A stretch of DNA of 64,000 bases from an uncultured Chloroflexia bacterium (lineage in GTDB: Bacteria; Chloroflexota; Anaerolineae; CG2-30-64-16): the NCBI GenBank assembly GCA_963810095.1, contig CAWEMM010000011.1:128001-192000 (forward strand), in the 5' to 3' direction. Positions 1-60,435 of the stretch are shown here, piece by piece (the stretch's first letter is position 1; each line of letters opens with the position of its first letter). The notes under the pieces were generated by a model. It ran no database searches. It saw only the letters and a program-made list of their open reading frames with translations, and had not been told where the DNA came from. A program made the position numbers and the translations under genes.

Positions 1-11710
<11,710 letters not shown>

Positions 11711-11714
<4 letters not shown>

Positions 11715-12822: not shown

Positions 12823-12873
12823 CCGGGCAAGTTTCTGCGCAGCATCGCACCAACTGACGACTAAGGAGACGGC

Positions 12874-14208: not shown

Positions 14209-14225
14209 GCGAGACGAAACCACCG

Positions 14226-15002: not shown

Positions 15003-15064
15003 CACCGCAGCGAGCAATACACCCGTTTTCCGCGCAACTTTATCGTTGCGCAACAGGAGGCAAC

Positions 15065-15286
15065 ATGGGCTGGGACGATCGTGAGGACACCACGGTTTAC
15101 CGGGTGGTCGTGAACTATGAGGAGCAATACTCCATCTGGCCGGTGGACCGCGAGATCCCCGCGGGCTGGCGCGATGGGGGCAAGAGCGGACCGAAAGCGG
15201 AGTGCCTGGCCTACATCAAGGAAGTCTGGACCGACATGCGGCCGCTTAGCCTGCGCAAGCAGATGGATGAGGCGCAAGGGGAGTAG
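15065..15286 (+). CDS. mbtH: MbtH-like protein
   Basis: [12 protein letters not shown]...P.GW...[18 protein letters not shown], with RBS AGGAGG at ~15055. Confidence 0.97.
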
Positions 15287-15299
15287 GAAGGGACGGCGG

Positions 15300-18538: not shown

Positions 18539-20279
18539 CTAGGGATGGTTTACCACTAGTTGATACGGGCTTGTGGCAGAGAAACCCGAGCCGACGAACA
18601 CGCGGACGTAGTAGTCGCCCGCCGCGCCGTACGCGCCCACCTCGTACGGGGCCGTCGTGTCGGTCATCAAGGTGTTGGCAATGTTGTCATAGTACAACAC
18701 CACCCGCACGGTCTCGCCCACCATGCCATCGACCCGGGCCGTGATTGCGCCGGCTTGGGTCATTTGCACGTGGAAGAAGTCACTTGAGTCGTTGGGCAGC
18801 GCGTAGACCGCTGCATCGCTGGTCAAACCGCCGTTGGCCTGCGTAAGCACATTGTTCGGTTCCGTCTCCCAACTCACCGCAGCACTGCGCACCTCGGACC
18901 AGGGGCTTGTGCCGCCGAAGTTGCGCGCTCGGACGCGGTAGTAGAAGGTGCCGATGCCGCGGCTGGGCATGTGAAACGAGGCGCTCTCGCCGGTATAGAC
19001 GATCTGGGTTGTTCCGGCAAAATCCGCGTTCTGCCCCTGCTCAACTTCGTAGACGTAGGCGTCATAGATCGGCGTCCACGAAATCAGGTAACTCGGACTT
19101 CCACCGGGCGGCTCGATCGCCATGAGTGAAGGCGCCAGCGGTGGCTGCAGATCAGCCGGCAGTTGGAGCACCAGCGGGAGATACACATTGGGCACACGGG
19201 TGGCCTCAGGCGTTCCCGTTTCGGTGGCCGTCGCAGTGGGCGTAAACGACTCGGCCGGAGTGGGGGTATCGGTGGCCGTAGGGCCCTCAGTGGCCGTCGG
19301 GCTCGGCGTGGGCGTCTCCGTTGGGGTTGCGGTGGGCGTAGACGTCACCTCGGACGTCGGCGTATCGGTCGGAGCCGGCGTGGACGTCGCGGCACGCACG
19401 CCGAAGTTGACCACCTTGTTCGTCGGGAAAACCAGGGTGACCGGCACCTGTGTCGGGCTCGTAGCTGCGTAGCCCGCCGGCAGCTGGACGGAGACGGTGT
19501 AGACGCCCGCGGCAGCCGTCGGGAACTCGTAGTAGCCGGCCGCGAAAGTGGTTGCCTGCCTCCGCAGCTTCGGGTCGTCTGGCCGCGGCACCAGGTCCAC
19601 CTTGACACCGCTCACCCCCGACGTCTCGTTGGGGTTACGGATGCCGTCCCCGTTTTGGTCAAGAAATACATGACCGGTCAGCGGAATGACAACCTTGACG
19701 GTGACTTTGTCGGTGCGCGATAACTGGGTCCCGTCGCCATCGACGGCCGTCCAGGTCGCAGTGTTTGTAACATCCTGGAGCAGCGCAGGCGGGAGCCCGG
19801 CGAGACCGATCTGTCCGCTGGGTGGGAGATTGAACACTGCGGGACCCGGGCTGCCCAGCTTGTCGTCGACAAGCGTGTGGGTGATCCACGTCGTAGTCCC
19901 GTTGTTTGTTACGATGTAGCAGTACGCCACCGTCGTGCTGTACCACACGGTCAGCGAGTCGACCGCGCCCACGCACCCCCCCTGCGCGTCAAAGTCCGAT
20001 CGCAGCATGACCTTCTTGTCGAACCGAAAATCGGGTGCCGCGGGCTGGTCGGGCGAAGCCGGGGCCGGTCCGGTTATCCGCCTGCCCCATCCCGAAGGCA
20101 GGCAGCAGACGGAACTCGGTCGAACCCGCCCCGGCCGCGCCGGCCACAGCGTCGGCGAGCGGCCCGGCCGGCCGCGCCGGCGCCGCCAGCACTGCCAGTA
20201 CAAGGGCAGCGGACAGCCCGGCACCCACCAGTATGAGTGTCAGCAAGCCGGCAGTCCGGCGCAATCCGCTTCTCACCAA
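18539..20279 (-). CDS. Secreted protein: DUF11-like Ig, SdrD B-like, Thr-Pro linker, YLPL motif, Fn3-like and PPC-like domains, frameshift near the N-terminus
   Basis: Signal peptide in ORF 19989..20279. Body in 18539..20224 has GHVFLDQNGDG..NPNETSGVSGV, VYLPLVLQ, YYRVRARN and WETEPNN. Confidence 0.8.
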
Positions 20280-20306
20280 GCCTCCTCGAGCCGCCGTGCG
20301 CTCAAG

Positions 20307-23300
20307 CTAGCGCTGAATCAAAGGCAGATAGAGCCGCGTCAGGTCCCCATTGAAGACCGAATTGCTGCGCGATTGATAGCTGCCGCCATCGAAAGACCAG
20401 TACGCATAGGCGCCCCGATTTAGAACGCTGACGGAATTCCCCACGGCTCGCGGCGCAGCACCCGCAGGCAGCGGGAGATAGATGTCAGGCACCGGCGGAG
20501 CGAGCGGCGTCTCGGGCGTAGGAGTGTCGGTATCGACCGGCGCCGGCACAGGCGTATCCGTCGGCGTGAGCGTATACGTGGCAGTTGGCGGCTCAGGCGT
20601 GTCGGTCGGCGTGAGCGTGTACGTGGCAGTTGGCGGCACAGGCGTGTCCGTCGGCGTCCACGTCGGTGTCCAGGTGGCAGTGTCCGTTGGCGTCCACGTC
20701 GGTGTCGACGTAGCAGTGTCGGTCGGCGTCCAAGTAGGCGTCCACGTCGGTGTCCAGGTGGCGGTGTCAGTGGGCGTCCAAGTGGGCGTATGGGTGGGCG
20801 TGGGCGTATTCGTCGGGGTGTTGGTCGGCGTGTTGGATGGCGTACTCGTCGGTGTGTAAGTAGGTGTGTTGGTTGGCGTATTGGTCGGCGTCGGCGTCCA
20901 TGCAAGGTAATTCGCAGTGACCGTTACGTCCAGCGTGGACGGCGTGAAGGAAGTCGCCGGCGAAGTGCTGCCCCCAAGACTGCCCGAGGTTGCGGTCCAG
21001 TTATTGAAGTTGAAACCCGTGTTGACCGAGGCCGATATCGCGATCGCGACGCCCGGCTGATACTTCGTGCCGCCGCCGGGGCAGTTGGGCGCACCCACGC
21101 TCACGACACCCGCGCCGAGGGGCGACACCGCCGTCGTCACCGCGACGCATGCCTGGAAGTTCGCTGTGACGCTCTTGTTCGCGCTCATCGAAACGCCGGT
21201 TGGATTCGCGGAGCCGGTAACGTCGCCGCTCCAGCTGCTGAACCCATAGTCCGTCGCAGGGCTGGCCGTCAGTTGCACGAACGTGTTCGGCACATATTTC
21301 GTGCCGCCCTTGCAATTGGGCGCCGGCGCTGCCCCCACCGTCCCTGACCCGCTCGGGCTTACACCCTTGCTGAGGGAATAGCACCCCGCGAAGCGGGCGG
21401 TCAGGCTCTTCTCGCCGTCCATGGTAATCGTGATCGGATTGGCCCGGCTGTCCTGGCTAAGCGGCACGTCGCCGCTCCAGTAGTCGAAGGCGTAATCGTT
21501 CTCGGGCGCAGCCGTGAGCTGGACGACCGTGCCGTACTTGTATTGGCCGGCGGCAGTCGTGCAGTTCGGGGCAACGTTCGCGCTGATCGTGCCCGCACCG
21601 GCCGGCAACACTCCGGACGTGAGCGTAAAGCACGCGTCGATGAAGTTCGCCTGGACCGCCTTGTCCGCGTTCATCGTGATCGTGGTCGGATTTGCCGTGC
21701 CGGTGACGTCGCCGCTCCATTGGTCAAACACGTAGCCGGTGTTCGCGCTGGCGGTCAACGCCACACTCGTGCCCGGCAGGTAACGGTCGCCTCCGCAGTT
21801 CGGCGCGGGGCTCTTCCCGATGGACCCGGCGCCAAACGGACTCGGCGCAGCCGAGAGGATCTTGCACGTATCGTAGTTAGCCGTTACGGTCGAATTCGCC
21901 GTGCCCAGCGTCAGGGTGGTATTGGGCGAGGTGGGTGCGGCCACGCTCCCGCTGCTCGCAGACCACTGCTTGAACACATCGTAGGCGCTGGACGAGCTCG
22001 TGCTGATGTTTACCGTGCTGTTTGGCGCGTATTTCGTGCCGCCGCCGGGGCAGTTAGGCGCGCTATCCACCTTCGCCGTTGCACCGGTTCCGCCCGAAGT
22101 CGCTACGGTGACCCCAACGCACGAGAGGAAGTTGGCGGTGACTGTCTTCGCGGCATCCATCGTCACGCTTGTAGGGTTGGCGGAGACCGACGAGACCGGC
22201 CCGCTCCAATCCTTGAATGCGAAGTCGATCGCGGGCGCAGCCGTGAGGTTCACGACGGTACCCGGGTTGTACATGTTCGTGCCGCCACCCTGGCAGTTCG
22301 GCGCGACGTCACGGTTGACCGCGCCGCCGCCGGCTGGGTTCGATTGCGTCGTCAGGGGAAAGCATGCTGTGAAGTTCGCCGTGACGCTCTTGTTCGCCGT
22401 CATACTGACCGTGACAGGGCTCACGGCGCCGCTCGCATCACCCGTCCAACTGCTGAACTTGTAGCCCGACGCCGGGTTGGCCGTGAGGCTAACGTTCGTC
22501 CCATAGGTGTACTTAGTCGCGTCGGCCGCGCAATTGGGCGCAGGCAACGGCACAACCGCGCCACTGCTCGCCGGGCTCACCGTAGTCGCCAGGCTGAAGC
22601 ACGAGATCTCGAAGAGCGCCGTGACGTTCTTGTTCGCGTCCATCGTGATCGTGACGGGGTTCTTCTTTTGATCCGCAGTCGGAACGTCGCCGCTCCACTG
22701 TTGGAAGGTCTTGCCTGTCACCGGCACCGCCTCGAGGGTCACCGCGGTCCCGGGCAGATAGCGGTCCACACCGCAGTTCGGCGCGGTCTTTACCGAGACA
22801 GAACCGTCAGCCGCAGGCTGAGCCGCGGTCGTCAACGTCTTGCACTCGTCGTAGTTAGCGGTGGCCTTGGCATCAGTCGTGCCCAACGAAAGCGTCGTGT
22901 TCTGGGCGGTGGCGCTGCCGAGCGACCCGCTTGTCGTGGTCCAGTTCTTAAAGAGGAAGTACGCGCTTGCCGGGCTGGTGGTGATGTTCACCTGCGTGTT
23001 GGGCTTGTACTTGGTGCCGCCCTGGCAGTTCGGCGCAGTCGTCACGCTTGAGGTGCCGCCGCCGGTCGGATTGATCGCCGTGGACGCAGCGACACACGCT
23101 TCGAAATCCGCCGTCACCGACCGAGCCGCACTCATGGTCACCGAGGCCGGGCTGGTGCTGCCGGTGACGTCCCCGCTCCAGCTCTTGAAGTTCCAGTTGC
23201 TCGCCGGGCTCGCCGTCAGGTTAACGACCGTGCCCGGGTTGTACAGGTTCGCGCCCCCGCCCTGACAGTTCGGCGCGACGCTGGCGCTCACGGTGCCCGA

Positions 23301-25568
23301 CCCACTCGGCGCGCTGCTGGTGGTCAGGGGGAAGCAGCCTGTGAAGTTGGCAGTAACAGACCGGTCACCGTTCAGCGTCAGCGACACCGGGTTGGTGGGG
23401 CCGGCGGCATCTCCGTTCCAATCGACAAACTGGTAGCCGGTTGCGGGCTGCGCCTGCAGCTGGAGCTGTGAGCCGATGTTGTACAGGTTCTGTCCGTTGG
23501 CGCCGCCCTGGCAGTTCGGCGCGGGGCTGATCGACACGTTGCCACTGCTGCTGGGCGCAACTGATGCGCTGAGCAGCGAGCAGGCGCGGGTGCCGAAGTT
23601 CTCGACCACCGAGCAACCCTTGAGCGCAGCCGTGACGCTCGTCGGCGACGTGGCGGAGTAACCCGTGGGCAGTTCGTAACTGACCTGGTAGTCGCCGAGC
23701 TGCAGGCCCGTGAACTGGTAGTATCCGGAGCTCAAAGTCGTGGCCGGCGCACTGGCCTGCGAGCCGTTCTTGGTCAGCCGCACGGTGACGCCGGCCACGC
23801 CGGCCTCGCCGACGTCTCTCACCATGTTCGCGTTGGCGTCCAGGAACACGTACCCTTCGACCTTGCCGGTCGAGCAGGTGATCGCGGTTCCGGTGGAAGT
23901 CGCCGTCGACGTCTGCGTGCCGGTCGCAGTGGTCGATGCAGTGGGCGTGCTCGATGCACGCACCGTCGGGGTCACGGATGGGGTCGAGGTGGCAGTCCCG
24001 GTCTGCGTGGCCGTGGGACTGGGTCCCGGTGTTGCCGTCAATGTACGCGTGGCGGTCGGCGACTGGGTGGCCGTGGGCGTGGCGGTGGGAAGCGGCGCAA
24101 CGACCTTGTACCCAACCGTGTCCGCCGAGCCGGTCGTCAGGTCGCCCAGCGACCACGTGATCACTCGGCCATCGACTGTGGCTCGACTTGCCGGGAAGAT
24201 CGAACCCGGTACAAGTTCTACGTTGGACGGGACGGCATTCGTGATGACCGCGTTGGTGGCGATGCCCGCACCCAGCACTTGGTAGTCGATGAAGTAGCTG
24301 ATCTGGTCGCCCGGATTGATGGGGCCGTCGGGCGAAGACCACAGCGACAAGGCGATGCGGGGACCGACGGGCGTGTTTGTCACGGTCGGCGTCGAGGTGG
24401 GGGCCACGGTGTCGGTGGGTTGCGGTGTGTCACTTGGCGTAGGCGTAGGGGTGCGCGGGATCGTGACCGCAGCCCACAGACCGTCGTTCGTGCCTGCCAG
24501 GAGCCGGTTGTACGCCGCCCACCGGACCAGGTAAATCTTGCGCCCGGGCTCGCCAAGCCCATCAAACATCCATTGCCCGTCTTCGTAGCGATACATGCCC
24601 GAATCGCGGGTCCCTGCATAAAGTGCGAGGTCCCAGCCCTGGCTGACGGTATAGATCGACGACGGCCCGCCGAGCGGCGCCCAGGTCGCACCGCCATCCT
24701 TGCTCGAGAAAACGCCCCCGGAGTTCGTGCCCGCCCAAATCTCTCCTGATCCGGACCGGTCGTACGCGAAATCGTATACGCCGTACCCAACCAGGCCGGC
24801 CGGCTGCCAGACCTTGCCGCCATCGTAGGAAACGTAGGCGCCGTTGACCGTTCCCAACCCGACGATGCCGGGAACCGCGAAGAGGGTCAGTATCTTGCGG
24901 TCGTTCGCGCCGGTGCGGATGCCCGTATTGGCTGGGGTCCAATTAGCGCCTTCGTTCGTGGTACGGAAGATGCCCTGATCGTACGTGCCGACCAACGCCA
25001 CGTTCTGCGCATCGCAGGAGACCGCCGAAATATACAGCTGGGTGAGCCCCGTGTTCACCTGCGTCCACTGCCCCAGCTGCGGATCGTGACGAAACACGCC
25101 GCCGCCCCACGTGCCAGCGTAGATCTTGCCGGAAGGACAGACGGCGAAGGCTTGTATGCTCCGGTTGGTCAGGCCGATCGTGCTCATCTGGATCCACGAC
25201 TGGCCCGCGTCCTGGCTGCGGAAAAGCCCCACGCCATCAATGGCCGCGAAGGTGAAGTTGGGGCTCGATTGGATCACGACGATCCAGCGCACGTCGCCGA
25301 AGCTGTTGGGCGTCTTGCTCCAGCCTGTCGATTGGGTCCCGGCCGGGCTCGCTGCGGGACCAGGTCCAGCGCTCCAGCCGCGCGGAGGCTCGGGCGCGCC
25401 ATCCGGCACGCTGGCGGGGGCTGCAGGCGTGGAGGCGTCCTGAGCACTGACCGCGGCGGCTGGCAGCAGCGAGGTGAGCAGCGCGACGAGCATGATGAGC
25501 GCCAAAAGCGTTCTGTTCGGCGCTTGTGCTCGCTTCCCGGAACTGGACCGAAACATGGGCTCCTCCAA
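20307..25568 (-). CDS. 1753-aa secreted adhesin-like protein: Asp-box beta-propeller, DUF11-like, SdrD B-like, 11 divergent InlB-B-like repeats, Thr-Pro tracts, C-terminal LYLPLIQR
   Basis: Intact ORF with signal peptide, SxDGGxxW Asp-boxes, [10 protein letters not shown]...GEAGVAGV, and repeated G..V.LTA.P..GY.F..WSGD...VTANF units. Confidence 0.9.
20510..20900 (-). repeat. Thr-Pro low-complexity repeat (TPTW/TPTN/TPTD)
   Basis: 12-bp degenerate tandem units such as gtcggcgtccac encode (TPTx)n. Confidence 0.85.
20905..23583 (-). repeat. 11 tandem ~80-aa Cys-containing repeats
   Basis: Each unit starts with Cys and contains APNC. Counted from the translated ORF. Confidence 0.88.
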
Positions 25569-25626: not shown

Positions 25627-27597
25627 TTACTTAGTCTTCGGCGGCACGGGCACGGGCGTCGGCGTGAGCCCGCCCCAAACAAGCAGCCGGGCGCCCTCGG
25701 TGGTGGGCTGCGTCAGCCGCGCATAGGGATCTTTACGAACCACCAGGACCGTCCAATACAGACGATCGCCGCTTAACTGGCCCGTCGAAGCCATCGAGTC
25801 GATATTCACCTTCGCCTGATTCTTCGTCGTAACCGGTGCAAGGCCGCGGGCGTCGGCAGGCGTCTGGTCGGGGCTCCAGTAGACCACCTCGTACGCCGCG
25901 CCGGCCGGCAATGGACCCGCAGGCTGCCAACGGAAGACAACCGCCTCGTTCAAGCTCACGTTATCTTTTGGATCCAGAAGCACGGGCGGCGCGACTGCCG
26001 CGGGCGCTGCAGTCGCCGGTGGCGGCACCTTGGCCGTGGCCGCCGGCTTCGCGCCTGAAGTCTTTGGCGCAGCCGCCGTGCCCGGCGTGGTCGGCGTAAT
26101 CGTTGCTGTCGGCGCGACCGTCGCCGTCGGCGGCACAGGGGTCGCAGTCGGCGTCAAGGTGGGGGTCGACGTACGTGTCGGCGGCCTCTCGGCAATCCGG
26201 GTCGCCGTGTCCCCGGTCACCTGCCCCGTTCCGCTGCCCGGCTCGACCATGACCTTGGCCGTCATGTTCCACAACAGGCGGTCGTCCGTCCGGTCTGGCG
26301 CAAGATAGACGGTGTACGTAATATCGCCCTGGGTGTTCTGGCCGATGCTCCGGACGCGTGTAACTTGTGCCGGCAGCTCCAGGTCGGGAATCGCATCAAA
26401 GGCGACGATCGCTCGGTCGCCCGGCCGGACGCCGACGACGCGCAGTTCGGTCAAGTCACGCGTTTCGATCAGCCAGGAAGAGAAGTCAGCGAGCTGGACG
26501 GCGGGGGCGGTCGGTCCCACCTGCTGCCCGATGGATACGTCGACCGACGCGATCTGCCCCGCAAACGGCGCCCTGAGCTCGGTCTCCCCCAGCCCGGCCT
26601 GAGCCTGCTGCAGCTGCGCGTGGGCCGCGGCCAGATCCGCTTCGGCCGCCAGCAGCTCTTCGGCCTGCGGACCGGCCAAGAACAGCTCGAGTTTGGCCCT
26701 GGCCTGGCGCACGTCGGCCTCGGCCGCCGCGACGTCGGAGGGCCGCGGTGGTGCCAGCCTACCCTGCAGCTCAGCCCGCGCCCGGTCCACCTGGGCCTTC
26801 GCGTTGGCGATGTCTGCGGGGTTGGGACCGCGTTTCGCGCTCTCATACCGCGCCTTCGCCGCGTCGTACTCATTGGTACGCTGCTGCAAAGCCAGGGCCT
26901 GCGGACTCATGCCGGCCATGGGATATTCGCCGATGCGGTCGTACTCGCTCTGGGCCATCTGCACCTTAGCCGCGGCATTGTCCATGTCGGCCTTAGCCGC
27001 CGCAATGTCGTTCGGATTCGCCGGCGTCTGGGCCTTTTGCAGCACGGCTTCGGCCTGGGCGACGTTGGCCCGGGCGGCTGCAACGTCCGCCTCGCCTGGA
27101 CCGGCCTTCAAGGAGTCGACGCGCGCCTGGGCCGCATCGACGGCAGCCCGGGCGCCGTCGATCTCCTGGCTACGTGACCCGGCCCGCACCTGGCTAAGCC
27201 GCGCTTCGGCGCGCTTGACGTCCGCTTCGGCCTGGGCGACGCTGGCCTGCTGGCGCGCGCTGCCCAGCCGAACCAGCACCTGGTCCATCTCGACGCGGTC
27301 ACCCTCTGCCACCAGCACCTCGTCGACCGTCCCCGTTGTGCCAAAACGCAGATCCGAGCTTCGAATCGGGATGACGTGCCCGTCGGCAATGATACGGTCG
27401 TCTGCCTTGACTGCCGGAAGCGGCGTTGGCGCGGCCGCAGGGGGCTGGGCGTTGCACGCAGTCAACAGCACAAGCAAGGGCAAGCAAAGCAGAGCGTTCC
27501 ACGGGCGCCGGCGGCGATCCGAAGCGTCATGGATCTGCCTGCGCGGCGTATCTTTCTGCGTCATCTGCGTTCTATTCAGTAATGCGGCTGGACGCAT
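25627..27597 (-). CDS. HlyD/MFP efflux adaptor lipoprotein with Pro/Thr linker and extra C-terminal domain
   Basis: Lipobox LTAC, lipoyl-like halves (GTVDEVLVAEGDRV and LRAPFAGQI), long Ala-rich coiled coil. Start uncertain. Confidence 0.88.
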   Translation of the reverse strand: MRPAALLNRTQMTQKDTPRRQIHDASDRRRRPWNALLCLPLLVLLTACNAQPPAAAPTPLPAVKADDRIIADGHVIPIRSSDLRFGTTGTVDEVLVAEGDRVEMDQVLVRLGSARQQASVAQAEADVKRAEARLSQVRAGSRSQEIDGARAAVDAAQARVDSLKAGPGEADVAAARANVAQAEAVLQKAQTPANPNDIAAAKADMDNAAAKVQMAQSEYDRIGEYPMAGMSPQALALQQRTNEYDAAKARYESAKRGPNPADIANAKAQVDRARAELQGRLAPPRPSDVAAAEADVRQARAKLELFLAGPQAEELLAAEADLAAAHAQLQQAQAGLGETELRAPFAGQIASVDVSIGQQVGPTAPAVQLADFSSWLIETRDLTELRVVGVRPGDRAIVAFDAIPDLELPAQVTRVRSIGQNTQGDITYTVYLAPDRTDDRLLWNMTAKVMVEPGSGTGQVTGDTATRIAERPPTRTSTPTLTPTATPVPPTATVAPTATITPTTPGTAAAPKTSGAKPAATAKVPPPATAAPAAVAPPVLLDPKDNVSLNEAVVFRWQPAGPLPAGAAYEVVYWSPDQTPADARGLAPVTTKNQAKVNIDSMASTGQLSGDRLYWTVLVVRKDPYARLTQPTTEGARLLVWGGLTPTPVPVPPKTK

Positions 27598-27608
27598 GTA
27601 CGTTCCCT

Positions 27609-30007
27609 TTACTCGTAGGCCAGCACCTCGCGCACGCTGAGGCGCGAGGCGTTGCGCGCGGGCCACAGGCTCGCAACGGCGGCTAGCAGTAAAACTGCAG
27701 CTAGCCAAATGAACGCGCCGGGTGCGGAGAAGCTGTAGCTGAGCGGCGTGCGCAGAAAGGCGATGCCGACCGCGTTGCTCAGGAAGCGACTCAGGGGCAG
27801 CGCGAGAAGCAGGCCCGCGGACCAACTCAGCACTCCAATCAACGCACCTTCGCCAATAACGATTCCCCGAATTGCAGCGCCCGTTGCGCCGACCGCGCGC
27901 ATCACGCCGATTTCACGCGTACGTTCGAGTACGTTAATGCTCATCGTTCCGGCCAGACCGAGCGCACCTACGACGGCAATCAGCACGGCCATGATCAGGA
28001 GAAACACCACGATGACGTTGAATTGGTTGACTGTGGCCGCCCGCAACTGGCCGATCGTCTGAGTCGAACTGACCCGTAGCCCCGCGGCCTCGAACCGTTG
28101 CTCCAGCGCCCGGGCGAGCTGCATCTGCCCTTGCAGTGTGGCGGCGGGCGCGACTACTTGCACGCTGCCGGCCCGATCGACATTGCGCGCAACCCGCGTA
28201 AAGTACGGATAATTGGCATACACCGTGGGGCCCGAGAGCACCCCTCGGATAATGCCAACGACCGTCCACGTCGTCGGCCGGCCGTCCATCTGCAGCTCGA
28301 TCTGCTGGCCGATGCGAACGTCTGGCTCCTGTTGTAGAAAATCGGTATTGATGACGACCGCGTTCTCGTCATCGTCGAGCAGCCAGCGCCCCCGCCAGAC
28401 GTCAGGCTGCAGGAGTTTTGTGTCCGCCGCGGTGCGATGAGGACGTAGCCTTCGCTCTCGGTGCCGTCGGGGCGCTCGCGGCGGACACTCTGGTATCCCC
28501 AGGTTTCCGCGGCCAGAACGCCAGGCACGGACCGGGCCTGCTGTTCGATGTCGTCGACGCGGTAGGGGCGATTGAAGACAACCCCCACGTCATATTGCCA
28601 GTACTTGAGCGCGTCGTCAAGTGTTAGCAGCAGCGACGCGCGCACGCTGAACACCGACATGAAGATGGCGCTCCCCAAGCTGAGGGTGATCAGCGTGAGC
28701 GCCAGCCTCCGCTTGCGCCGGAATGTGTTGCGGAGCGACAGCACGAGCGGCCGCGAGAGGAACCGGATGGCCGACAGGATGCGGTCGACCGGCCCACGCC
28801 CGAACCCCCCTCCCGACAGGCCGTAGTTCGTGATGGCCTCGCGCACCGTGATGCGCGCACCCCCGCGTACCGGGCCGATGGCGGCTGCCAGGGGCACCAG
28901 TAGGGCCGCAGCAGCCTGGATGCCGAACACCCAGAGTGGCACCTGGAAGCCCTTCAAGTCAAAGTTGACCAGCCGGGCGAGGAAGCTCACGATTGCCCGC
29001 GCGGCCAGCATGCTGAGCGGCACCGCGATGGCAAGGGCGACGAGACCCAGCGCCAACACCATCGTAAGGTACATGCCCGAGAGCTGCGCCGACGTCGCGC
29101 CCACCGCCTTCATAACGCCAATCTGCCGCACCTGCTGCGCCAGCAGCGCCGAAATGGTGTTGACGATCAGGAAAGCGCTGAGAATGAGGGTCAGGACGCC
29201 CAGCGCGGTCAACAACATGACCATCGGTTCGACGAACCGTTGGAAGGGGTGGCGGCCCGGCGTGGGCACTTCGGTGTAGTAGACGCGGCGCCCGCTCTTC
29301 TCGATCTTGTAGCGCACATCCTGCGTCACGTCGAGAATGTGCTCCCGGTCGAGCTTGCCGTGCTTGACGACAAACTGGAGCTCGTTAAAGCTGTTTGGCG
29401 CGCCCAGCCACTCCAACGTGCCAGGGCTAATATAGGCATAGACGCGGTTGGAGAACGTCGGCGAGGGCAGCGTCGCGTCGTGCACCGTCCCGGTCACCTT
29501 CAGCTCGCGCTCGCTGTCGTTCGGCATCCGGATCGTGATCGTGTCGCCGACGGTGGCGCCTGCCAGGGCGAGCGCACCCCGCTCGATGAGGATATCGCGA
29601 TCGGCGGGCGGGTACGCGCCCACCTCGGGGGTGATCCGGTCGATCTGCATCGACTCGTAATCGGGGATGGCGAAGAGCGTGATGTCGCGCCATTGGGGTT
29701 CGCCAGACTCGGTTCCCTTGACCTGGACGCGAGCGCTGACGGTGCGCCGTCCCTCGGCCTCGCCCACGCCCGACAGATTCCGGATGGTCTGCACCAACTC
29801 GTCGTCAAACGGATCGGAGACGATGCTTGCGCTGGCCGGGTTGGCCGCGTTGTAGCCTGCGGGCAGGTCACGGGAGATGATGGCATAGCTCGCGCCGATA
29901 ATCCCCAGGGCAGCCACGCCCACGGCAATAGAGAGGACCACGAGGAGGGTGCGCGCCCGGTTGCCCCAGAGATCGCGAAGCACCTTGCGCCAGCGGGGCG
30001 CGATCAT
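27609..30007 (-). CDS. FtsX/MacB-type ABC transporter permease (two FtsX domains), frameshift ~28430
   Basis: [29 protein letters not shown] and [14 protein letters not shown] in ORFs 28154..30007 and 27609..28289. Confidence 0.92.
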
Positions 30008-30840
30008 GCGCCGGTCTCCGCCGGGGCTGCTGCCGCCGCCAGCTCCCCGGGGGTCTGGCCCGAGTCGTCAAGGGCAACAAACTGGCCGTCGGCGATGCGG
30101 AGGGTCCGCGTGACGCGCTGTGAAAGGTCGCGATCGTGGGTCACCATGACCACGGTCTTGCCGCCGGCGACCGCCTCGGTGAAGAGATGAAAGACCGCCT
30201 CCGCGGTGCGCGAGTCGAGGTTGCCCGTCGGCTCGTCGGCGATCAGGATAGGCGGGTCGTTGGCCAGCGCCCGGGCAATGGCGACGCGCTGCTGTTCGCC
30301 GCCCGAAAGGGTCGTAGGCAGCTTGTCGGCATGGCGCGACATCTCGACGCGATCGAGGAGGGCCAGCGCACGCTTACGCCGCTCGCGCACCGGATAGGTG
30401 TTGCAGAAATCCATCGGCAGCATGACGTTTTCCGCCACGCTGAGCATGGGCAGGAGCTGGAAAAACTGGAAGACGAGCCCGACGTTGCGCCCCCGCCAGA
30501 CCGCCATCTTCTCTTCGTTAAGGGTGTGCACCGCGGTATCGCCGATGTAGATTTCCCCCGAGGTTGGCCGGTCGATACCCGTCAGCATGTTGATGAGCGT
30601 CGACTTGCCCGAGCCGGATTTGCCGACAATCGCAAGGAACTCGCCGGGGTTGACGCACAGGTCGACACCCCTGAGGGCCATGAAGCTGGCTCCCGCTTCG
30701 CCCGCCCGCGGCCCAAGCGCAAATGTCTTGACGACGTTGCGCACCTCGATGAGGTGGGTGTTGCCATAGCGATAGTGCGGGCCAGCGCCGGCCGCGTCGC
30801 CCTGCGCGCTCGCTGCAGGCTGCCGGGAGTTACGTCGCAC
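30004..30840 (-). CDS. ABC transporter ATP-binding protein (LolD/MacB-like)
   Basis: [49 protein letters not shown]. Confidence 0.95.
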
Positions 30841-53611: not shown

Positions 53612-54721
53612 CTACTGCACGATCGTCAGTGGCACCGGCACGAAGACGAGCACGAACAGCACCAGCATGGCCGCCGCGAACACCTTCTGACGCTCGGTCA
53701 GCTCGGTGATCTCGTCCAAGGGCATGTCCTGGATACGCGTTGCCAGCAGCAGCAGCACCAGCCAGAGCACCCACCCCGTCCACACAAACGACAGCGCCAC
53801 CATCACCCCAAGCATCACCCACCCCAGCAGCCTGGCGCGCTGGGGCCCCAACAAGGCATAGGCGATGTGCCCGCCGTCGAGCTGCCCCGCCGGAATCAGG
53901 TTCAGGCCGGTGACGAGCAGTCCGGCCCACCCGGCAAACGCCAACTGGTGGACCCATACATCCATCCCCGCCGAGGGCAGGAGCCGGCCGAACACCAGGA
54001 ACTTCAGCGCCGCATAGAGCAGCGAGTTCCCTTCCATCTGGTAGCCGCCGGGCGGCAGAGGCTGCAAGTGGCTCAGCTTGAGCCCAATTAGCAGGACCGG
54101 GATCGCAACCACCAGGCCGGCGACGGGACCCGACGCGCCGATGGCCAGCAGGTGCCGCCGGTTTCGGATCGGCGCGCCGGCCGTGATCACCGCGCCGAGT
54201 GTGCCGAAGGGTCCGATGGGCAACGGGATGAAGTACGGCAGGCTGGTCGGGCTGCCCAAGCGGCGGGCCGTCAGGTAGTGCCCGAACTCATGCGCCAGCA
54301 GGATGGCGAGCAAGCCGGCGGCGAACGGCAGTCCGTCGAGCAGGTGAAAGTTCCAGGTGGTCAGCCCGTCCACCATCTGCGCCCCGGCGAAGAGGCACGA
54401 GAATACCGTTAATATGAAGAGCACCGCCGGGAGCAGCACACGCGGTTTGCCGCCCCCGAAGGTGACGGGGAGCGCCAGCAATTCTTCGCCCGGCCCGTCA
54501 GGCCGCCGGCGCAGCGTGGGCGTCCACCCGGAAGGGCTGAGCCGGTCGGAAAGCAGCTGCCAAGCCCGCTCGGCCGGCATGAACAGCCGGCCATGGACGC
54601 GCACCGCGTTGGCAGGCGGCACCCCGGCCATAACGTTATCGATGCTCATGACCTCGGCGGCTGCGGCCCGAACTTCATCCACTCCGCCCGGGGGCTGCTC
54701 CAGTGGGGTTACTCCACGCAT
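53612..54721 (-). CDS. Site-2 protease (M50 family)
   Basis: HEFGH, GTLGA, GPVAG, NLIPAGQLDGGH and multiple TM segments. Confidence 0.93.
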   Translation of the reverse strand: MRGVTPLEQPPGGVDEVRAAAAEVMSIDNVMAGVPPANAVRVHGRLFMPAERAWQLLSDRLSPSGWTPTLRRRPDGPGEELLALPVTFGGGKPRVLLPAVLFILTVFSCLFAGAQMVDGLTTWNFHLLDGLPFAAGLLAILLAHEFGHYLTARRLGSPTSLPYFIPLPIGPFGTLGAVITAGAPIRNRRHLLAIGASGPVAGLVVAIPVLLIGLKLSHLQPLPPGGYQMEGNSLLYAALKFLVFGRLLPSAGMDVWVHQLAFAGWAGLLVTGLNLIPAGQLDGGHIAYALLGPQRARLLGWVMLGVMVALSFVWTGWVLWLVLLLLATRIQDMPLDEITELTERQKVFAAAMLVLFVLVFVPVPLTIVQ

Positions 54722-56752
54722 TCGCGCTTCTCGCCCCTGAGTGCCGCGGCCACCGCGCTGCCGTCCACCGACTCACAGCGGATCAGCTCTTCCGTGAGCA
54801 TCTCGAGCGCGTCCCGGTGCTCGGTGAGCAGGCGCTGGGCCCGCTCGACCTGCTCCGATACGATCCGCTTGACCTCGGCATCGATGGTCTCGCGCGTCTC
54901 GGGGCTCAGGCTCGCGTTGTCCTCCATGGCCCCGCCCAGGTACTGCAGCTGCTGCCCGGCATAGCGTACCCAGCCCAGCTTCTCGCTCATCCCCCACTCG
55001 GTGACCATGCGCCGGGCGAGCTCGGTCGCGCGGTTGATGTCGTCAGACGCACCCGTGCTGATCTCGTTGTAGATGATCGTCTCGGCCGAGCGCCCACCCA
55101 TCATGATCGCGATGCGGTCCAGCAGCTCGTCCTCGCGAATCAGGTAGCGATCCTCTTCCGGCATCTGCATCGTGTAGCCCAGCGAGCCCCGGCTGCGCGG
55201 CACGATGCTGATCTTCGAGACGGGGTCGCCGTGCGGCACAAGATGCGCGATCAGCGCGTGGCCGGCCTCGTGATACGCCACCGCACGCTTCACGTCCTCG
55301 TTCAGCATCTTGGTCCGCTGCTCGAGCCCTGCGACGACGCGTTCGATGGCCGCCTCGAAGTCCCGGATCGTGACCGCGTCCGCGTCCCGGCGGGCTGCCA
55401 GCAGCGCGGCCTCATTCATGATGTTCGCCAGGTCCGCACCGCTGAAGCCGGGCGTCATCCGGGCGGCCCGCTCGATGTCGAAATCGGGCGTCAGCTTCAC
55501 GTTCTTGCTGTGAATGCGCAGGATTTGCTGGCGGCCGATCAGGTCAGGGTTGCCGACCGTCACCTGGCGGTCGAAGCGCCCGGCGCGCAGCAGCGCCTGG
55601 TCGAGCACCTCGGGCCGGTTGGTGGCGGCCATGATGATCACGGGCGCGGTTGTGTTTGTCTTGAAGCCGTCGATCTCGGCGAGCAGCTGATTGAGCGTCT
55701 GCTCGCGCTCGTCGTTGCCGCCAATTCGCATATTCATGCCGCGGCTCGCGCCGATCGCGTCGATCTCGTCGATGAAGATGACGGCCGGAGCGGCCTTGCG
55801 GGCTTGTTCGAAGAGGTCGCGCACACGGGCCGCGCCCACGCCGACGAACATCTCCACGAATTCGGACCCGCTCGTTTCGAAGAAGGAAACGCCGGCTTCG
55901 CCCGCCGTCGCCTTGGCGAGCAGCGTCTTGCCTGTGCCGGGCGGCCCGACGAGCAGCACGCCCTTGGGGATGCGCCCGCCGAGCTTCGCAAACTGCTCGG
56001 GGCTCTTCAGGAACTGGATGGTTTCCTGAAGCTCGGCGATGGCCTCGTCGGCGCCGCCCACGTCCTTATACGTAACGCCCACATCTTCGGGCTTGACCTC
56101 TTGCGCCTTGCTCTTGCCCACCCCGAAGATATTGCCCAAACCGCCGCCGCCCATTCCTGCGCCGCCACCCGAGCGGGCGCGGAAAAGCATGTACCAGAAG
56201 CCCCCGAGCAGCGCAAGGGGCAAAATCCATGAGATGAGGAACGCGCCGATTGGGCTGTCGGGCCGGGCAAAGCGGTACTGCACGCCCGACGCCTGCAGGT
56301 CTTTCACCAGGTTCGGGTCGCCGCCGCTCTCGAAGAAGGTATTGAAAGTGAGTGTGTTCGTGTTCGGCTGGCTTGCGCCGATCGCCGCGGCGAGGTCCGG
56401 ACGCAATCACCGTGGGACTGCCGGGAGCCCCTGCCGTTGGCAGAGCGGTCGGAGCAGCCGTTGCGCCGGGCGCCGGAGTTGCCGCAGGGTTCGGGTTCTT
56501 CATCTCGCCGCTCAAGGCCGTCTGGCCGATCTCGACGGACAGGATTTGACCGGCGGCGAGTTTCTGGCGGAACTCGCTGTAGGGTATCTCGGCCGTGCGC
56601 ACGCTGAGCGGGCCGAGGACAAACTGTTGAAATAGCCAGAGTACGACGAGCCCGACGAGAATGTAGGTCACCCCATAACGCATCTGGCGCCCCATCTGCT
56701 CTTGGCGCTCTTTCTCGTCGTCTTGATCTGGCTTGCGATCCTTCTTATCCAT
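54709..56752 (-). CDS. ftsH: ATP-dependent zinc metalloprotease FtsH, frameshift ~56405
   Basis: Two TM segments, [39 protein letters not shown]. Confidence 0.95.
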
Positions 56753-56986: not shown

Positions 56987-57619
56987 CTACGCCATCAGGG
57001 ACTTGGCGAGCCGTACGGCAGACGAGGCATCCGGGCTGTAGCCGTCGGCGCCGATCTGCTTGGCGAAGCCATCTGTTACGGGCGCGCCGCCGATCATAAC
57101 CTTGACCTGATCGCGCAGGCCGGCTTCCTGGAGCGCCTTGATCGTGCCCGTCATCGAAGGCATGGTCGTAGTAAGCAGCGCAGACATGCCGATCACCTGG
57201 GGCTTGTGATCCATCACCGCCTTGACGAACTTATCGGGGGTCACGTCGGTGCCCAAGTCGACAACGTCGAACCCGGCGCCTTCGAGCATCATGGCGACAA
57301 GGTTCTTGCCGATATCGTGGAGATCGCCCTTGACTGTGCCAACGACGACTTTGCCTGCCGGCGCCGCGCCTGAGTCGGCCAGCAGCGGCTTCAAAATGGC
57401 CAAGCCGGACTGCATGGCACGCGCCGAGACCAGCATCTCGGGCACAAAGTACTCGTTTTCCTCGAACAGCCGGCCGACCTCGCCCATGGCGGAGATCAGG
57501 CCTTCCTTCAGGATAACGTCTGGCGCGGTGCCCTCAGCAATGGCTGCCTTTACACCCGCCTGCGCTGCGGCGGCGTTGCCGTCCAAAACGGCTTGATAAA
57601 TGGCTTCGAGTTGGCTCAC
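56987..57619 (-). CDS. Cobalamin-binding corrinoid protein (MtaC/MttC/MetH B12-module-like)
   Basis: Cap domain M.EVG.LFE..EYFVPEML, DLHDIG, MSALLTTT, MIGGAP. GTG start with GGAGGA RBS. Confidence 0.95.
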   Translation of the reverse strand: MSQLEAIYQAVLDGNAAAAQAGVKAAIAEGTAPDVILKEGLISAMGEVGRLFEENEYFVPEMLVSARAMQSGLAILKPLLADSGAAPAGKVVVGTVKGDLHDIGKNLVAMMLEGAGFDVVDLGTDVTPDKFVKAVMDHKPQVIGMSALLTTTMPSMTGTIKALQEAGLRDQVKVMIGGAPVTDGFAKQIGADGYSPDASSAVRLAKSLMA

Positions 57620-57753
57620 AGTGTCCTCCAGCGTAACGCGGCTTGGGGATGAATCGGCAGCTCGCCGGCGCTGCTGGCCGGTCTGCCTACAAACTGCTGC
57701 CAGTATACGCGTAACACATGGGTCCAACAATGACGTTAATCAGGAACCCCGAC

Positions 57754-57782
57754 TTGTTTCTTTGCTCGCAGCCACGTATAAT
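57754..57782 (+). promoter_or_regulatory. Putative sigma70 promoter for the GroEL-like gene
   Basis: TTGTTT-17 bp-TATAAT. A divergent TATACT for the corrinoid gene lies on the minus strand at ~57702-57707. Confidence 0.6.
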
Positions 57783-57852
57783 CGAACGGGTCGGATAGCT
57801 TAGGCGAGACTGGCTCCTTTTTATTCCCTCCCCATCGAGGCAAAGCCACCAC

Positions 57853-59479
57853 ATGCGAAAACGACGGTCAGGTGTCCTGTTCCAGCCCGCGGTCGGGCGC
57901 GCGCTACAACGCGGTGCAGCAACCCTGGTTGCGGCTGTTGAGCCCACACTCGGACCGCTGCCCCGCTACACGGCCATACAGCGCGCAACCACGGGCGGCC
58001 CCGAGATCCTGGACCAGGCGGGCGTCATCGCCAGAAGGGTCATTGCGCTGCCTGACCCCGACGAAGACGTCGGCGCGATGCTGGTGCGACACCTGATGTG
58101 GCAGATGACCGAGCGGGTCGGCGACGGCGGAGCGACGGCGGGCGTGCTGTTCCTCGCCATTTACAGGGCGGGGCGCACTTACGTCACGGCGGGCGGCAAC
58201 CCGATGGTGTTGCGTGGGCACCTGGAAGCCGCAACCCGGGTGGTTCTTGCGGAGTTGGACGGCATGGTCCGCCCGGTCGAGGGGCGCGAGGCCCTGGCCA
58301 ACCTGGCACGCTCGGTCTGCTTCGACGATCAACTCGCAGCCGTGCTGGGCGAGATCTTTGACATTATTGGCGAATACGGTGGGCTGGACATTCGCACCGG
58401 GCGGGGCCGGGATCTCGAACGCGAGTACGTCGAGGGGATGTACTGGGACGGCGGTTTGCTCTCACGTGAGCTGACCACGGATTCGGCCCGCCTGCGCGGT
58501 GAGCTCGAAGATGCGGCGGTGCTGGTGAGCAACCTAGAAATCACGGATGTGCGCGATCTTGCAGACTTTCTCTCGCAGTGCGCGGCCGGCGGTGTCAAGA
58601 CGCTGTTCATCGTGGCGCGCAGTATCTCGAACGAGGCCATGAGTGTACTCGTCGTCAACAACAACGCTGGGAGCATGAAGACCCTGGCCGCCCGGTGTCC
58701 GATCTCAGGAACGACCGTACACGACGACCTGGAGGACATGGCCGTGCTCACCGGCGCGCGCGCCTTCCACATGGACGCCGGCGATTCGATCCGGTCGGTC
58801 CGGGTGGCCGACCTGGGCCGGGCTCGGCGGGCCTGGGTAGACAAAGACTACCTGGGCGTGTCGGGTGGCGGCGGCGATCCCCGGGCTGTACGCACCCACC
58901 TTGCGAACCTCCGCCACGCCTACGGGGCCTCGCAGCGCGACGGCGAGGCACGGCAGAAGCTGCGGAGGCGCATTGGCAAACTGCTGGGCGGCGCGGCCAC
59001 GCTGTGGATCGGCGCGGCGACCGAGGCCGAGATGGAGCCTCGGAAAGCGCTGGCCGAAAGGACTGCAGAGTCGTTGCGTGCGGCCCTCGTCGACGGTGCG
59101 CTGCCGGGCGGCGGGGCCGCCTTCCTGGCCTGCCGGAAGGCGCTGCGCGACTGCGGAAACGCGGCGACCACGCCCGACGAGCGCGCCGCCTATCGCATTC
59201 TGGCCCAGGCGCTCGAGGCGCCCGCACGCACCATCCTCCGCAATGCCGGCGCCGAGGTTGCAGCCGCAATGGCCGGGATCGACGCGGCGCCGCCTCGGCT
59301 ACGGTTACGACGTCGTCGGCGGCCGGGTCGTTGACATGGCCGAAAGCGGCCTGCTTGACGTTGCAGCCGTCGTACGCTTGGCCCTAACCTCTGCCGTATC
59401 TGTCGCCGCGATGGCCTTGACCACCGACGCCCTCGTTCACACCGACTTCGGAACGCAGGGCGCCAACTTCACCCCGTGA
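57853..59479 (+). CDS. Highly divergent GroEL/Cpn60-like protein, frameshift ~59295
   Basis: TLGP, GDGGATA, G.NPM.L, EGMYWDGG, LEDMAVLTG, LGRA, RRIGKLLGG, GALPGGG, LEAP.R.I..NAG. The C-terminus GYDV....VDM.E.GLLD...V...AL..AVSVAAM.LTT is in frame 58865..59479. Confidence 0.88.
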
Positions 59480-60435
59480 GAGACATGAACGACCAACCGA
59501 CCGAAAACCAGATTGAAGACGCTGCCGTGTACGCCATCGTCGCTTCGCCCGCTTACGCGACCGACGGTACCTGCTTTGCGGCCACGGCGGCGGGGCTGCG
59601 CGTCTCGCACGATTGTGCGGTAACCCTGTCGGATGCCTACCGCGCCCTGCAGCTGCCGGAACCGCTGCCCACCCCTGCGGTCACGCTCTCGCCGGGCTTC
59701 GAATCGGACGGCACGGTGTTCGCCGGCGTGTTCGGCGCGATCTTGCGTTCCCACGATCGGGGCGCGAACTGGCTTTATGCCGAGCTGCGCACGCCACCCC
59801 CCGTCGTCACCTGTCTCGCCGTCTCGCCCGCGTACGAACAGGATGGAATTGTGTTCGCCGGCACGCTGCAGGATGGGATTTTCCGCTCGGCAGACCGCGG
59901 TGACCGGTGGGCCGCGTGGAACTTCGGGCTCATCGACCTGGGCGTGCTCTGCCTGGCCCTCTCGCCTGCGTATGCCACGGACGAAACACTGGTGGTAGGC
60001 ACGGAAACCGGCCTGTTCCGCAGCACAAACGGAGGGCGGGCCTGGCGTGAACTGGGCCTGCCGACCGATCTCGCGCCGGTTCTCAGCGTGGCCTTCGCTC
60101 CTGACTATACGAAGAGCGGCGTTCTGTTTGCGGGGACCGAGTCCAGCGGGCTCTGGGTCTCGTCGGACCGCGGCCGCAGTTGGGCATCGGTCGAGGCCCT
60201 TGAAGAGGGCGCAGTGAACGCGCTGCTCGTGGAGCAAGGCGGTGAGGGCCTGACGCTCGTGGCGCTTGTCGAAGACCAGGTCCGCGTCTCACACGACGGC
60301 GCGGCGACATGGGACATCCTGCCAAGCGCCGAGGACCTGGCGCCTATTTGCCTGGCCGCTCCACTGGGCGCGGCCAGGGGCGCCCCCCTGCTCGTCGGCT
60401 GCTCAGACGGGGCGCTACGCCAGCTGACCCTTTAG
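59476..60435 (+). CDS. Cytoplasmic Asp-box (BNR) beta-propeller protein
   Basis: Repeated SP.Y..DGT.FAGT..G..RS.D.G..W blades, no signal peptide. GTG overlaps the upstream stop (GTGA), with an alternative ATG at 59485. Confidence 0.85.
   Translation: MRDMNDQPTENQIEDAAVYAIVASPAYATDGTCFAATAAGLRVSHDCAVTLSDAYRALQLPEPLPTPAVTLSPGFESDGTVFAGVFGAILRSHDRGANWLYAELRTPPPVVTCLAVSPAYEQDGIVFAGTLQDGIFRSADRGDRWAAWNFGLIDLGVLCLALSPAYATDETLVVGTETGLFRSTNGGRAWRELGLPTDLAPVLSVAFAPDYTKSGVLFAGTESSGLWVSSDRGRSWASVEALEEGAVNALLVEQGGEGLTLVALVEDQVRVSHDGAATWDILPSAEDLAPICLAAPLGAARGAPLLVGCSDGALRQLTL

Follow-up and report, generated by a model that had tools for sequence, protein, structure and literature searches.

The 64,000-nt stretch of Chloroflexota DNA analyzed here (the window, at its full length; C11:128001-192000 of a 6.1-Mb source genome in 16 contigs, 88.5% complete) encodes a divergent derivative of the chaperonin Cpn60/GroEL, hereafter the cpn-like protein, followed on the same strand by a seven-bladed BNR/Asp-box β-propeller (Table 1). 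Within the Anaerolineae (Chloroflexota), a group of bacteria from soil and sediment, the cpn-like gene is conserved, and the evidence assembled below supports a functional tie between its product and the propeller. As judged from structure prediction, the propeller probably binds the cpn-like protein directly, at a hinge, and the family-wide residue pattern indicates that the cpn-like protein may still bind nucleotide and probably no longer goes through a fast cycle of ATP hydrolysis coupled to GroES. Taken together, these observations suggest a chaperonin turned to a new job. An earlier note, made from the sequence of the window alone, had proposed a repurposed chaperonin coupled to a propeller that serves as its lid, partner or client, and had tied the pair to corrinoid/tetrapyrrole metabolism. 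A conserved, repurposed chaperonin paralogue coupled to a propeller is upheld by our analysis, and the corrinoid link and the roles of lid and in-cage client are not.

The cpn-like open reading frame (ORF), as assembled, matches the Pfam Cpn60_TCP1 profile (PF00118) with 85.6 bits (cut-off 34.3) over positions 3-430 of the 490-position profile, whose final 48 positions fall in the +1 frame; this C-terminal frame scores 28.1 bits. Two sequences represented the protein in our searches, namely the truncated ORF of the window and an intact, 84%-identical homologue of 541 amino acids (aa), P0005, which matches GroELs of known structure with E values of 1e-84 to 1e-67. P0005 falls below the cut-off of the NCBIfam GroEL equivalog TIGR02348 (332.5 vs 582.1), and the only subfamily model that it passes is NF009487 (360.5 vs 352). 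The AlphaFold 2 (AF2) monomer model of the cpn-like protein (predicted local distance difference test score, pLDDT, 78.9; low confidence at residues 36-64 and 194-214) reached template-modelling (TM) scores of up to 0.83 to GroEL chains in a Foldseek comparison, whose best structural matches were all group I chaperonins. The model lies closest to GroES-bound GroEL chains, cis or football (TM 0.77-0.83), vs TM values of only 0.54-0.61 to apo, T-state and most other GroES-free chains. A search of the ESM Atlas with the cpn-like protein returned only Cpn60 clusters from Chloroflexota.

Alignment of the window protein to E. coli GroEL (from NC_000913; L005:1526-3172) gave TLGPLP for TLGPKG, EILDQAG for TITKDG, GDGGAT for GDGTTT and LAERTA for RVEDAL, that is, K51 to D, D52 to Q, T89 to G, T90 to A and D398 to R in E. 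coli numbering. All the motif readings of the earlier note (TLGPLP, LDQA, GDGGAT, LAERTA) were thus correct. The note had described these catalytic residues as eroded; they are indeed replaced, and the replacement is conserved rather than random. Counted in E. coli numbering over 210 distinct family sequences, D398 is kept in none, being R in 202, H in seven and Y in one, and K51 has become D in 205, T90 A in 190 and G35 P in 194. Position 52 varies (D 94, N 50, S 40, Q 18). The backbone of the nucleotide pocket (T30-P33, G86-D87-G88, T91, G414-416) is kept, with D87 and G414 present in 210/210 sequences and D495 in 206/210. In the apical domain Y199 has become L, V or I, Y203 E or Q, and F204 M across the family, R197 is G in 136/210 and E178 is R in 201/210; the inter-ring residue R452 persists in 208/210, and the hydrophobic character of helices H and I is partly retained (L237, L259, V263). 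Altogether 38 positions are at least 95% conserved and unlike canonical GroEL, including W83, W198, W328 and C427 (P0005 numbering).

The C-terminus of the window protein reads ...GANFTP and bears no GGM repeats, as first noticed, and the family at large closes with ...LVH(H/R)xxP..., its tail being about 12 residues long. The missing GGM tail is a weak feature, because long GGM repeats are missing from the local canonical GroEL as well. Two cysteines are specific to the family (P0005 numbering): C427, present in 205/210 sequences, and C156, which at 193/210 lies just under the 95% threshold; they correspond to V422 and A152 of E. coli GroEL, respectively. The corresponding segments of GroEL line its nucleotide pocket, and the two residues may have a redox or metal role.

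The family was delimited by a pattern scan of species-representative genomes, which yielded 210 relatives, the best 80 of which were kept as loci. These best 80 all come from metagenome-assembled genomes (MAGs), nearly all of them labelled Anaerolineae, Anaerolineales, Caldilineaceae, Ardenticatenia or Thermoflexales, together with two bins labelled Zixibacteria and Spirochaetota. Within the order of the window, family matches score at least 420 bits vs 230-260 bits for canonical GroELs, so that the score distribution is clearly bimodal. In a class-wide sample, 28/301 genomes carry a cpn-like match at E <= 1e-186, a threshold adopted because a looser one of 1e-110 admitted canonical GroELs. 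A Cpn60 phylogeny, suggested in the earlier note, was computed with FastTree (117 rows) and recovered the cpn-like sequences as one monophyletic clade on a long stem with a support of 100, which is Shimodaira-Hasegawa (SH)-like only and applies to a tree with long branches flagged. Nei-Gojobori ratios of nonsynonymous to synonymous substitution rates (dN/dS) were 0.042-0.230 in 18/18 pairs, with 0.18 for the window against G025. These values are far from the ratio near 1 by which the earlier note would have recognized a decaying paralogue, and the gene is not decaying.

Outside the core clade, deeper relatives from other Anaerolineae (L134-L143, 36-38% identity) lack D398 in 10/10 cases, carrying R, E, Q, H, K or A in its place. 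They share a ...VHHRKP... tail, and a BNR propeller gene follows in 6/10, with some of these genes apparently exceeding the length of a single propeller. The association may thus predate the core clade and extend beyond it. The source genome holds three Cpn60 genes: the canonical groES-groEL pair on contig C6, a paralogue on C15 and the cpn-like gene on C11. The C15 paralogue (C15:63237-64709, L002; about 524 aa, Pfam 209.8 bits) has D398 replaced by G and keeps K51, D52 and GDGTTT; neither groES nor a CIRCE (controlling inverted repeat of chaperone expression) element nor a propeller adjoins it, and it stands beside the cpn-like clade in the tree, on a long and unreliable branch. Apparent second cpn-like copies within loci were discarded, the 15 extra cluster members being off-frame ORFs.

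As assembled, the cpn-like gene of the window is interrupted, its ORF of 493 aa comparing with mostly 513-541 aa among the close homologues listed. The earlier note had spoken of a frameshift-corrected protein and had left open that the shift was real decay. A +1 shift is truly present in the assembly, at about 59290-59297, and is an error of sequencing or assembly, so that the cpn-like gene should be taken as intact. Contigs of relatives from four sequencing runs were compared, of which just one bridges the site: a 523-nt contig of a ~95%-identical relative (run X1) spans 59223-59746 with 27 mismatches to the window and a single gap, one base missing at 59292, whose absence recovers the frame up to the stop and on into the propeller gene. 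Moreover, a survey of indels with 14 E. coli proteins (tblastn against the source genome) resolved infB into six abutting collinear high-scoring segment pairs (HSPs) in alternating frames and rpoC into collinear HSPs with several changes of frame; such changes were likewise seen in rpoB, nusA and truB. In the window itself, ftsH (54709-56752) is split between two frames, and the non-ribosomal peptide synthetase (NRPS) genes of the first 16 kb are chopped mid-domain. We conclude that the shift is an artefact because the ~95%-identical contig lacks the extra base and essential genes of the same assembly repeatedly change frame. Any pseudogene call in so indel-rich an assembly consequently needs checking, and the case serves as a caution, given that an apparent frameshift here proved to be an assembly artefact.

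The downstream gene encodes a propeller whose AF2 model is confident (pLDDT 92, predicted TM score 0.90) and comprises seven four-stranded blades. It matches Pfam Sortilin-Vps10 (47.9 bits) and BNR_6 (35.8 bits), and PSII_BNR only below its cut-off (22.4 bits vs 27); the match to the NCBIfam F510_1955 glycosylhydrolase family is likewise weak (72.7 bits vs a cut-off of 175). Its nearest folds are the propeller domains of GH74 enzymes and WD40 proteins, at TM ~0.7. Inspection by eye and alignment showed a short, acidic N-terminus with no hydrophobic leader, signal peptide or lipobox, in agreement with the original description of a propeller lacking a signal. The note had also described the cpn-like stop as overlapping the propeller start in the sequence GTGA. 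This overlap exists in the DNA; the start called in the source's own annotation and in four near relatives is ATG 59485, 5 nt past the cpn-like stop. Thus, the two genes are tightly spaced, and the overlap is only an alternative start.

The linkage of the two genes extends well beyond the window. A propeller homologue lies no more than 1.3 kb downstream of the cpn-like gene in 68/80 loci, at a median gap of 11 nt; 67 of these 68 share its strand, including a partial gene at a contig end, and the remaining one is inverted. Of the 12 loci that lack an adjoining propeller, two have less than 500 bp of downstream DNA. All-against-all clustering of the flanking ORFs identified the propeller as the sole real gene common to most loci (68/81). 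Adjacency was also found in 16/23 loci of the window's order and in 8/9 additional places, and it is present on the deepest branches of the tree. Of the 37 genomes in the order, 23 encode the pair and 12 lack both members; of the remaining two, one carries just the cpn-like gene, at a contig end, and the other just a weak propeller match, beside another divergent Cpn60 ORF. In four genomes of genus g16 that lack the adjacency, a propeller orthologue is encoded elsewhere (E ~1e-150). A phylum-wide search with a propeller profile also matches double-propeller paralogues of 650-680 aa and does not resolve orthology. A 745-aa ORF that appeared to fuse the two proteins (L042, 9400-10700) was rejected as an artefact of frame changes in a MAG with a 1.1-Mb contig.

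The earlier note had suggested a prediction of the complex with AlphaFold-multimer. A complex prediction was made for a 1:1 pair folded from an alignment of the cpn-like protein (A1) and one of the propeller (A2), alongside three controls. The interface score ipSAE was 0.81, 0.80 and 0.79 (0.80 overall), whereas the best control scored 0.00; the models showed 50-54 contacts, and the pLDDT of the partner was 89. The mark set for ipSAE is reached by 58/80 solved complexes and by 2/110 mismatched pairs, counts that are only rough for our own alignments. None of the PDB relatives of the propeller was deposited with a chaperonin, so that a complex score due to memorized structures is unlikely. On the cpn-like side the predicted interface comprises P0005 residues 144-145, 170-173, 194, 219-220, 325-326, 337-350 and 377-380 (E. 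coli 140-141, 167-170, 191, 216-217, 321-322, 333-334, 339-346 and 372-375). These residues map to the outer junction of the apical and intermediate domains around hinge 2 and away from the GroES- and substrate-binding helices H and I. The propeller would contribute blades 3-4, with the motifs WNFGLLDL and STNGGRAWRE. Among the 22 cpn-like interface residues, 13 are at least 90% conserved, compared with 132/541 overall (hypergeometric p = 4e-4), and G144, D170, R325, G338 and R347 are both conserved and family-specific. A predicted contact at the hinge that avoids helices H and I speaks against the propeller being a lid or an in-cage client, two of the roles first envisaged for it.

The cpn-like gene also stands apart from the heat-shock chaperonin system of its genome. 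A tblastn search with E. coli GroES located a sole groES in the source genome, at C6:612921-613205, beside the canonical groEL. No GroES homologue was found in any cpn-like locus (flanks of 1.5-8 kb), vs 8/8 canonical loci that have one. CIRCE elements, searched with the CIRCE consensus and up to three mismatches allowed, occur only on C6, with perfect copies at C6:612818 (groESL) and C6:395121, and none was found at this tolerance on C11, the contig that holds the cpn-like gene. Both searches bear out the absence of an adjacent groES and of a CIRCE element and support the view, already advanced in the earlier note, of a repurposed paralogue unlinked to GroES and outside CIRCE control.

The genomic context was surveyed for the genes that the earlier note had expected to co-occur, namely the propeller, a corrinoid protein, UroD/MttB methyltransferases and a second divergent groEL. 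Besides the propeller in 68/80 loci and the divergent Cpn60 on C15 described above, a B12-binding corrinoid-protein neighbor was found in only 4/80 loci and HemD in 0/80; neither UroD nor MttB is among the 48 window ORFs scanned with Pfam. The best NCBIfam matches of the corrinoid protein, MtgC and MtbC, are both below their cut-offs. Its divergent arrangement recurs in the genus (L007, L025, L027) and in a distant subclade (L092), and the gene lies 1.7 kb off in L055. The corrinoid/tetrapyrrole link is thus local to the genus of the window and a few others. L092, which has this divergent pairing, has no adjoining propeller.

Carbohydrate genes are the more frequent neighbors. ATP-binding cassette (ABC) sugar-type permeases occur in 28/81 loci, directly upstream on the same strand in 17/81, and a sulfatase gene is directly upstream in 12/81; LacI regulators (20/81), Zn-dependent alcohol dehydrogenase-type proteins (Zn-ADH, 16/81) and FGGY kinases (12/81) recur as well. 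In the 17 loci with an upstream permease (L103, L108, L112, L085 and 13 more), the cpn-like gene lies a few bases after the permease genes and is followed by FGGY kinase/sugar-isomerase genes, an arrangement by which it appears to belong to the operons of sugar-uptake loci. The operon theme that recurs is carbohydrate uptake and catabolism, neither heat shock nor corrinoid metabolism, and it is not universal. Anaerolineae genomes are rich in sugar loci, and such loci are phylogenetically clustered here.

On this evidence we lean, by somewhat more than an even chance, towards a stable hetero-complex in which a non-cycling, chaperonin-derived scaffold or holdase carries the propeller as its fixed partner. 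The two genes would form a conserved Anaerolineae module whose products, a GroEL-derived protein and a cytoplasmic seven-bladed BNR propeller, are co-produced and interact. Its cpn-like member retains the GroEL fold with all three domains, as well as the nucleotide-pocket backbone (T30-P33, G86-D87-G88, T91, G414-G416, D495), and carries a fixed charge swap at the catalytic center, D398 to R with K51 to D, accompanied by T90 to A. From the residue pattern we infer that this K51D/D398R swap latches the nucleotide site. The propeller would dock by blades 3-4 on the outer apical/intermediate junction and clamp the hinge in one conformation, and the pair would act as a scaffold or holdase rather than in general protein folding. 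In propellers, Asp-box loops are situated away from the usual ligand-binding face, which may therefore stay free. A bolder version, which we hold only tentatively, is a static nucleotide-latched ring: D398R/K51D would fill or lock the γ-phosphate site and leave each subunit open, as in GroES-bound GroEL, the propeller would clamp every hinge 2, and the product would be a new kind of cytoplasmic megacomplex displaying seven or 14 propellers, maybe with a role in the carbohydrate metabolism of Anaerolineae.

Several findings weigh against a non-cycling scaffold with a fixed propeller. D52 is kept in 94/210 family members and in most deeper relatives, and D87 and the GGG414-416 loop are intact, which leaves residual or alternative hydrolysis possible. 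The adjacency has been lost in at least five subclades, and the co-occurrence counts overstate the support, since related genomes are not independent. No cpn-propeller fusion was found among the best 120 of 834 longer propeller homologues, although this is weak evidence. As to the predicted complex, it was modelled as a single 1:1 pair, the low-confidence AF2 segment 194-214 touches the interface, and five of the conserved interface residues (G173, E194, L377, G379, G380) are conserved in all GroELs. For the propeller, conservation is only weakly enriched at the interface, where 10/20 residues are at least 90% conserved vs 106/316 overall (p = 0.09); a Mann-Whitney test of propeller-side conservation gave p = 0.002.

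In an alternative that we think unlikely, though deserving of serious attention, the cpn-like protein is a dedicated folding chaperonin: an ATP-driven group I machine, perhaps a slower one, that borrows the housekeeping GroES and has the propeller as its obligate client, the predicted contact being a late release or assembly intermediate. The retained pocket scaffold (D87, the GGG loop and D495, each in at least 206/210), D52 where it persists, the partly kept hydrophobicity of helices H and I and R452 in 208/210 would all fit such a machine, and tight co-transcription would suit a chaperone and its client. The group II chaperonin CCT is established as a folding machine for WD40 propellers, which provides a precedent. 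Against this stand the complete absence of D398, the replacement of K51 and T90 in at least 90% of the sequences and the loss of Y199, Y203 and F204 from the GroES/substrate site and, in 136/210, of R197 from the R197-E386 bridge. In addition, the predicted interface places an already folded propeller on the outer hinge rather than at helices H and I, the propeller alone already gives a confident model, and BNR propellers commonly occur where a genome has no cpn-like paralogue. Rather improbable, in our estimate, is an adaptor-bearing chaperonin or holdase for carbohydrate use, in which the propeller recruits a substrate or glycan on behalf of the enzymes or transporters of sugar or sulfated-glycan loci; it overlaps with the stable hetero-complex preferred here. 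The permeases and sulfatases directly upstream, the recurring LacI, Zn-ADH and FGGY kinase genes, and the kinship of the propeller with GH74 xyloglucanase propeller domains and BNR glycosidases, including its weak glycosylhydrolase match, speak for it. Its weight is reduced by the 41/81 loci with another gene or none directly upstream, by the general abundance and phylogenetic clustering of sugar loci in Anaerolineae, by the window's own neighbors (corrinoid protein, HemD, FtsH, Ffh) and by the single propeller, which has no two-propeller cleft of the kind found in GH74 enzymes.

An accessory role in corrinoid or tetrapyrrole metabolism, with which the earlier note had credited the pair, appears highly improbable: the divergent corrinoid protein adjoins the cpn-like gene in the window, hemD follows the propeller, and the divergent arrangement recurs in the lineages named above, but the association is limited to those few lineages, at 4/80 and 0/80 loci for the two genes, and the window contains no cobalamin riboswitch or other Rfam match and no UroD or MttB among its 48 ORFs scanned with Pfam. 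The reading of the gene as a decaying paralogue or pseudogene, with a real frameshift and with motif changes due to erosion, is close to refuted. The gene is split as assembled, and three other genomes of the order (G022, G019, G004) hold split copies; yet the bridging contig and the frame changes in infB, rpoC, rpoB, nusA and truB point to assembly error, and in G022 and G004, both assemblies of few contigs, the cpn-like gene is broken at other places and the propeller gene is broken too. Low dN/dS values (0.04-0.23) and substitutions fixed across 210 sequences also contradict decay.

Among known systems, GroEL/GroES of E. coli shares with the cpn-like family the three-domain Cpn60 fold and the residues D87, GGG414-416, D495 and R452. 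The family differs by the fixed replacements of D398 by R, K51 by D and T90 by A, by the substitution of Y199, Y203, F204 and R197, by the absence of a GGM tail, a groES at the locus and CIRCE, by scores below the GroEL equivalog cut-off and by its conserved propeller partner. Compared with CCT/TRiC and its WD40 clients, the likeness lies in a chaperonin linked to a seven-bladed propeller; the cpn-like protein is a group I derivative, CCT/thermosome models match only residues ~407-529 with 20-41 bits vs cut-offs of 400-710, and the predicted contact involves a folded propeller on the outer hinge, not one inside a lidded cavity. The propeller, automatically named "photosystem II stability/assembly factor-like", resembles Ycf48/HCF136 and GH74-type proteins in being a seven-bladed BNR/Asp-box propeller of about 320 aa with distant profile matches to HCF136/Ycf48 and GH74. 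It remains below the Ycf48/HCF136 cut-offs (NF010237, 25.3 vs 326; PSII_BNR as above), and no signal peptide or lipobox is visible by eye. GH74 enzymes have two tandem seven-bladed propellers with a catalytic cleft, whereas the present protein is a single propeller of 316 aa; GH74 chains align with it at TM ~0.7 through one of their two domains, and the F510_1955 model is not passed.

Closer to the cpn-like family in kind are the chlamydial GroEL2 and GroEL3, extra paralogues with altered GroES-binding and ATP-binding/hydrolysis regions that are not heat-induced and have no paired groES, according to the parts of PMC1892554 considered here, which make no mention of a conserved propeller partner. 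The cpn-like proteins form a separate family, scoring 102.6 against NF038370 and 97.8 against NF038369, each with a cut-off of 600. The eukaryotic BBS6, BBS10 and BBS12 are diverged chaperonin paralogues thought to assemble a specific complex rather than to serve general folding (PMC2846930, in the portion consulted); they derive from group II and show no sequence kinship with the cpn-like protein beyond the Cpn60_TCP1 superfamily. The "GroEL-like" gene of the gbu cluster was set aside as a precedent, being part of an ordinary GroES/GroEL pair in the consulted portion of PMC10653785. Our literature search returned no description of a GroEL paralogue with a BNR propeller partner in Chloroflexota, nor of an Anaerolineae cpn-like clade. 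GroEL paralogues with altered ATP and GroES sites are thus already known, from Chlamydiae, and the conserved propeller partner is new as far as that search extends.

GroEL is among the most conserved of bacterial machines, and paralogues without D398 that have a fixed partner would show the re-use of a folding cage. The cpn-like family is large and subject to purifying selection. The JGI and NCBI pipelines still annotate it as "chaperonin GroEL", which exaggerates the number of chaperonins in Chloroflexota and masks a distinct function. The predicted 1:1 interface and the clear revertants R403D and D54K (P0005 numbering) make the question experimentally approachable.

Table 1. Features of the cpn-like/propeller locus (window positions)
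Feature	Position	Strand	Remarks
cpn-like gene (Cpn60/GroEL-derived)	57853..59479	+	~541 aa if the 1-nt insertion near 59292 is read through
cpn-like ORF as assembled	57853..59334	+	493 aa; remainder in +1 frame to TGA 59477-59479
+1 frameshift site, one extra base	59290..59297	+	contig comparison, indel survey
Seven-bladed BNR/Asp-box β-propeller gene	59485..60435	+	316 aa from ATG 59485 ("MND")
Alternative in-frame propeller start GTG	59476	+	overlaps cpn-like stop as GTGA
Intergenic region, corrinoid-protein gene (divergent) to cpn-like gene	57731..57852	+	122 nt
Methyltransferase-type corrinoid protein gene	56987..57730	-	B12-binding_2 + B12-binding

The neighbors of the pair in the window are the divergent corrinoid protein, hemD, an amidohydrolase, a LacI regulator, FtsH, an M50 peptidase and Ffh. 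In the 122-nt region before the cpn-like gene, TTGTTT precedes a TATAAT hexamer (57777-57782) by 17 nt; a promoter scan reported no site by its criteria in this region. An Rfam scan of the window gave zero matches, cobalamin riboswitches included, and PADLOC gave no match. None of the public sequencing runs contains the exact sequence of the window (best share 0.12), and no RNA run is listed. Elsewhere in the window, an NRPS cluster on the plus strand (1-16100) encodes condensation, AMP-binding, PP-binding and thioesterase domains, together with a sulfotransferase, a major facilitator superfamily (MFS) exporter, a type II thioesterase and a phosphopantetheinyl transferase. It is followed on the minus strand (18539-25568) by two large repeat proteins, one of which (1753 aa) combines an SdrD_B domain with eight Flg_new_2 (divergent InlB B-repeat) units, and a MacB/FtsX-HlyD-ABC export set occupies 25627-30840.

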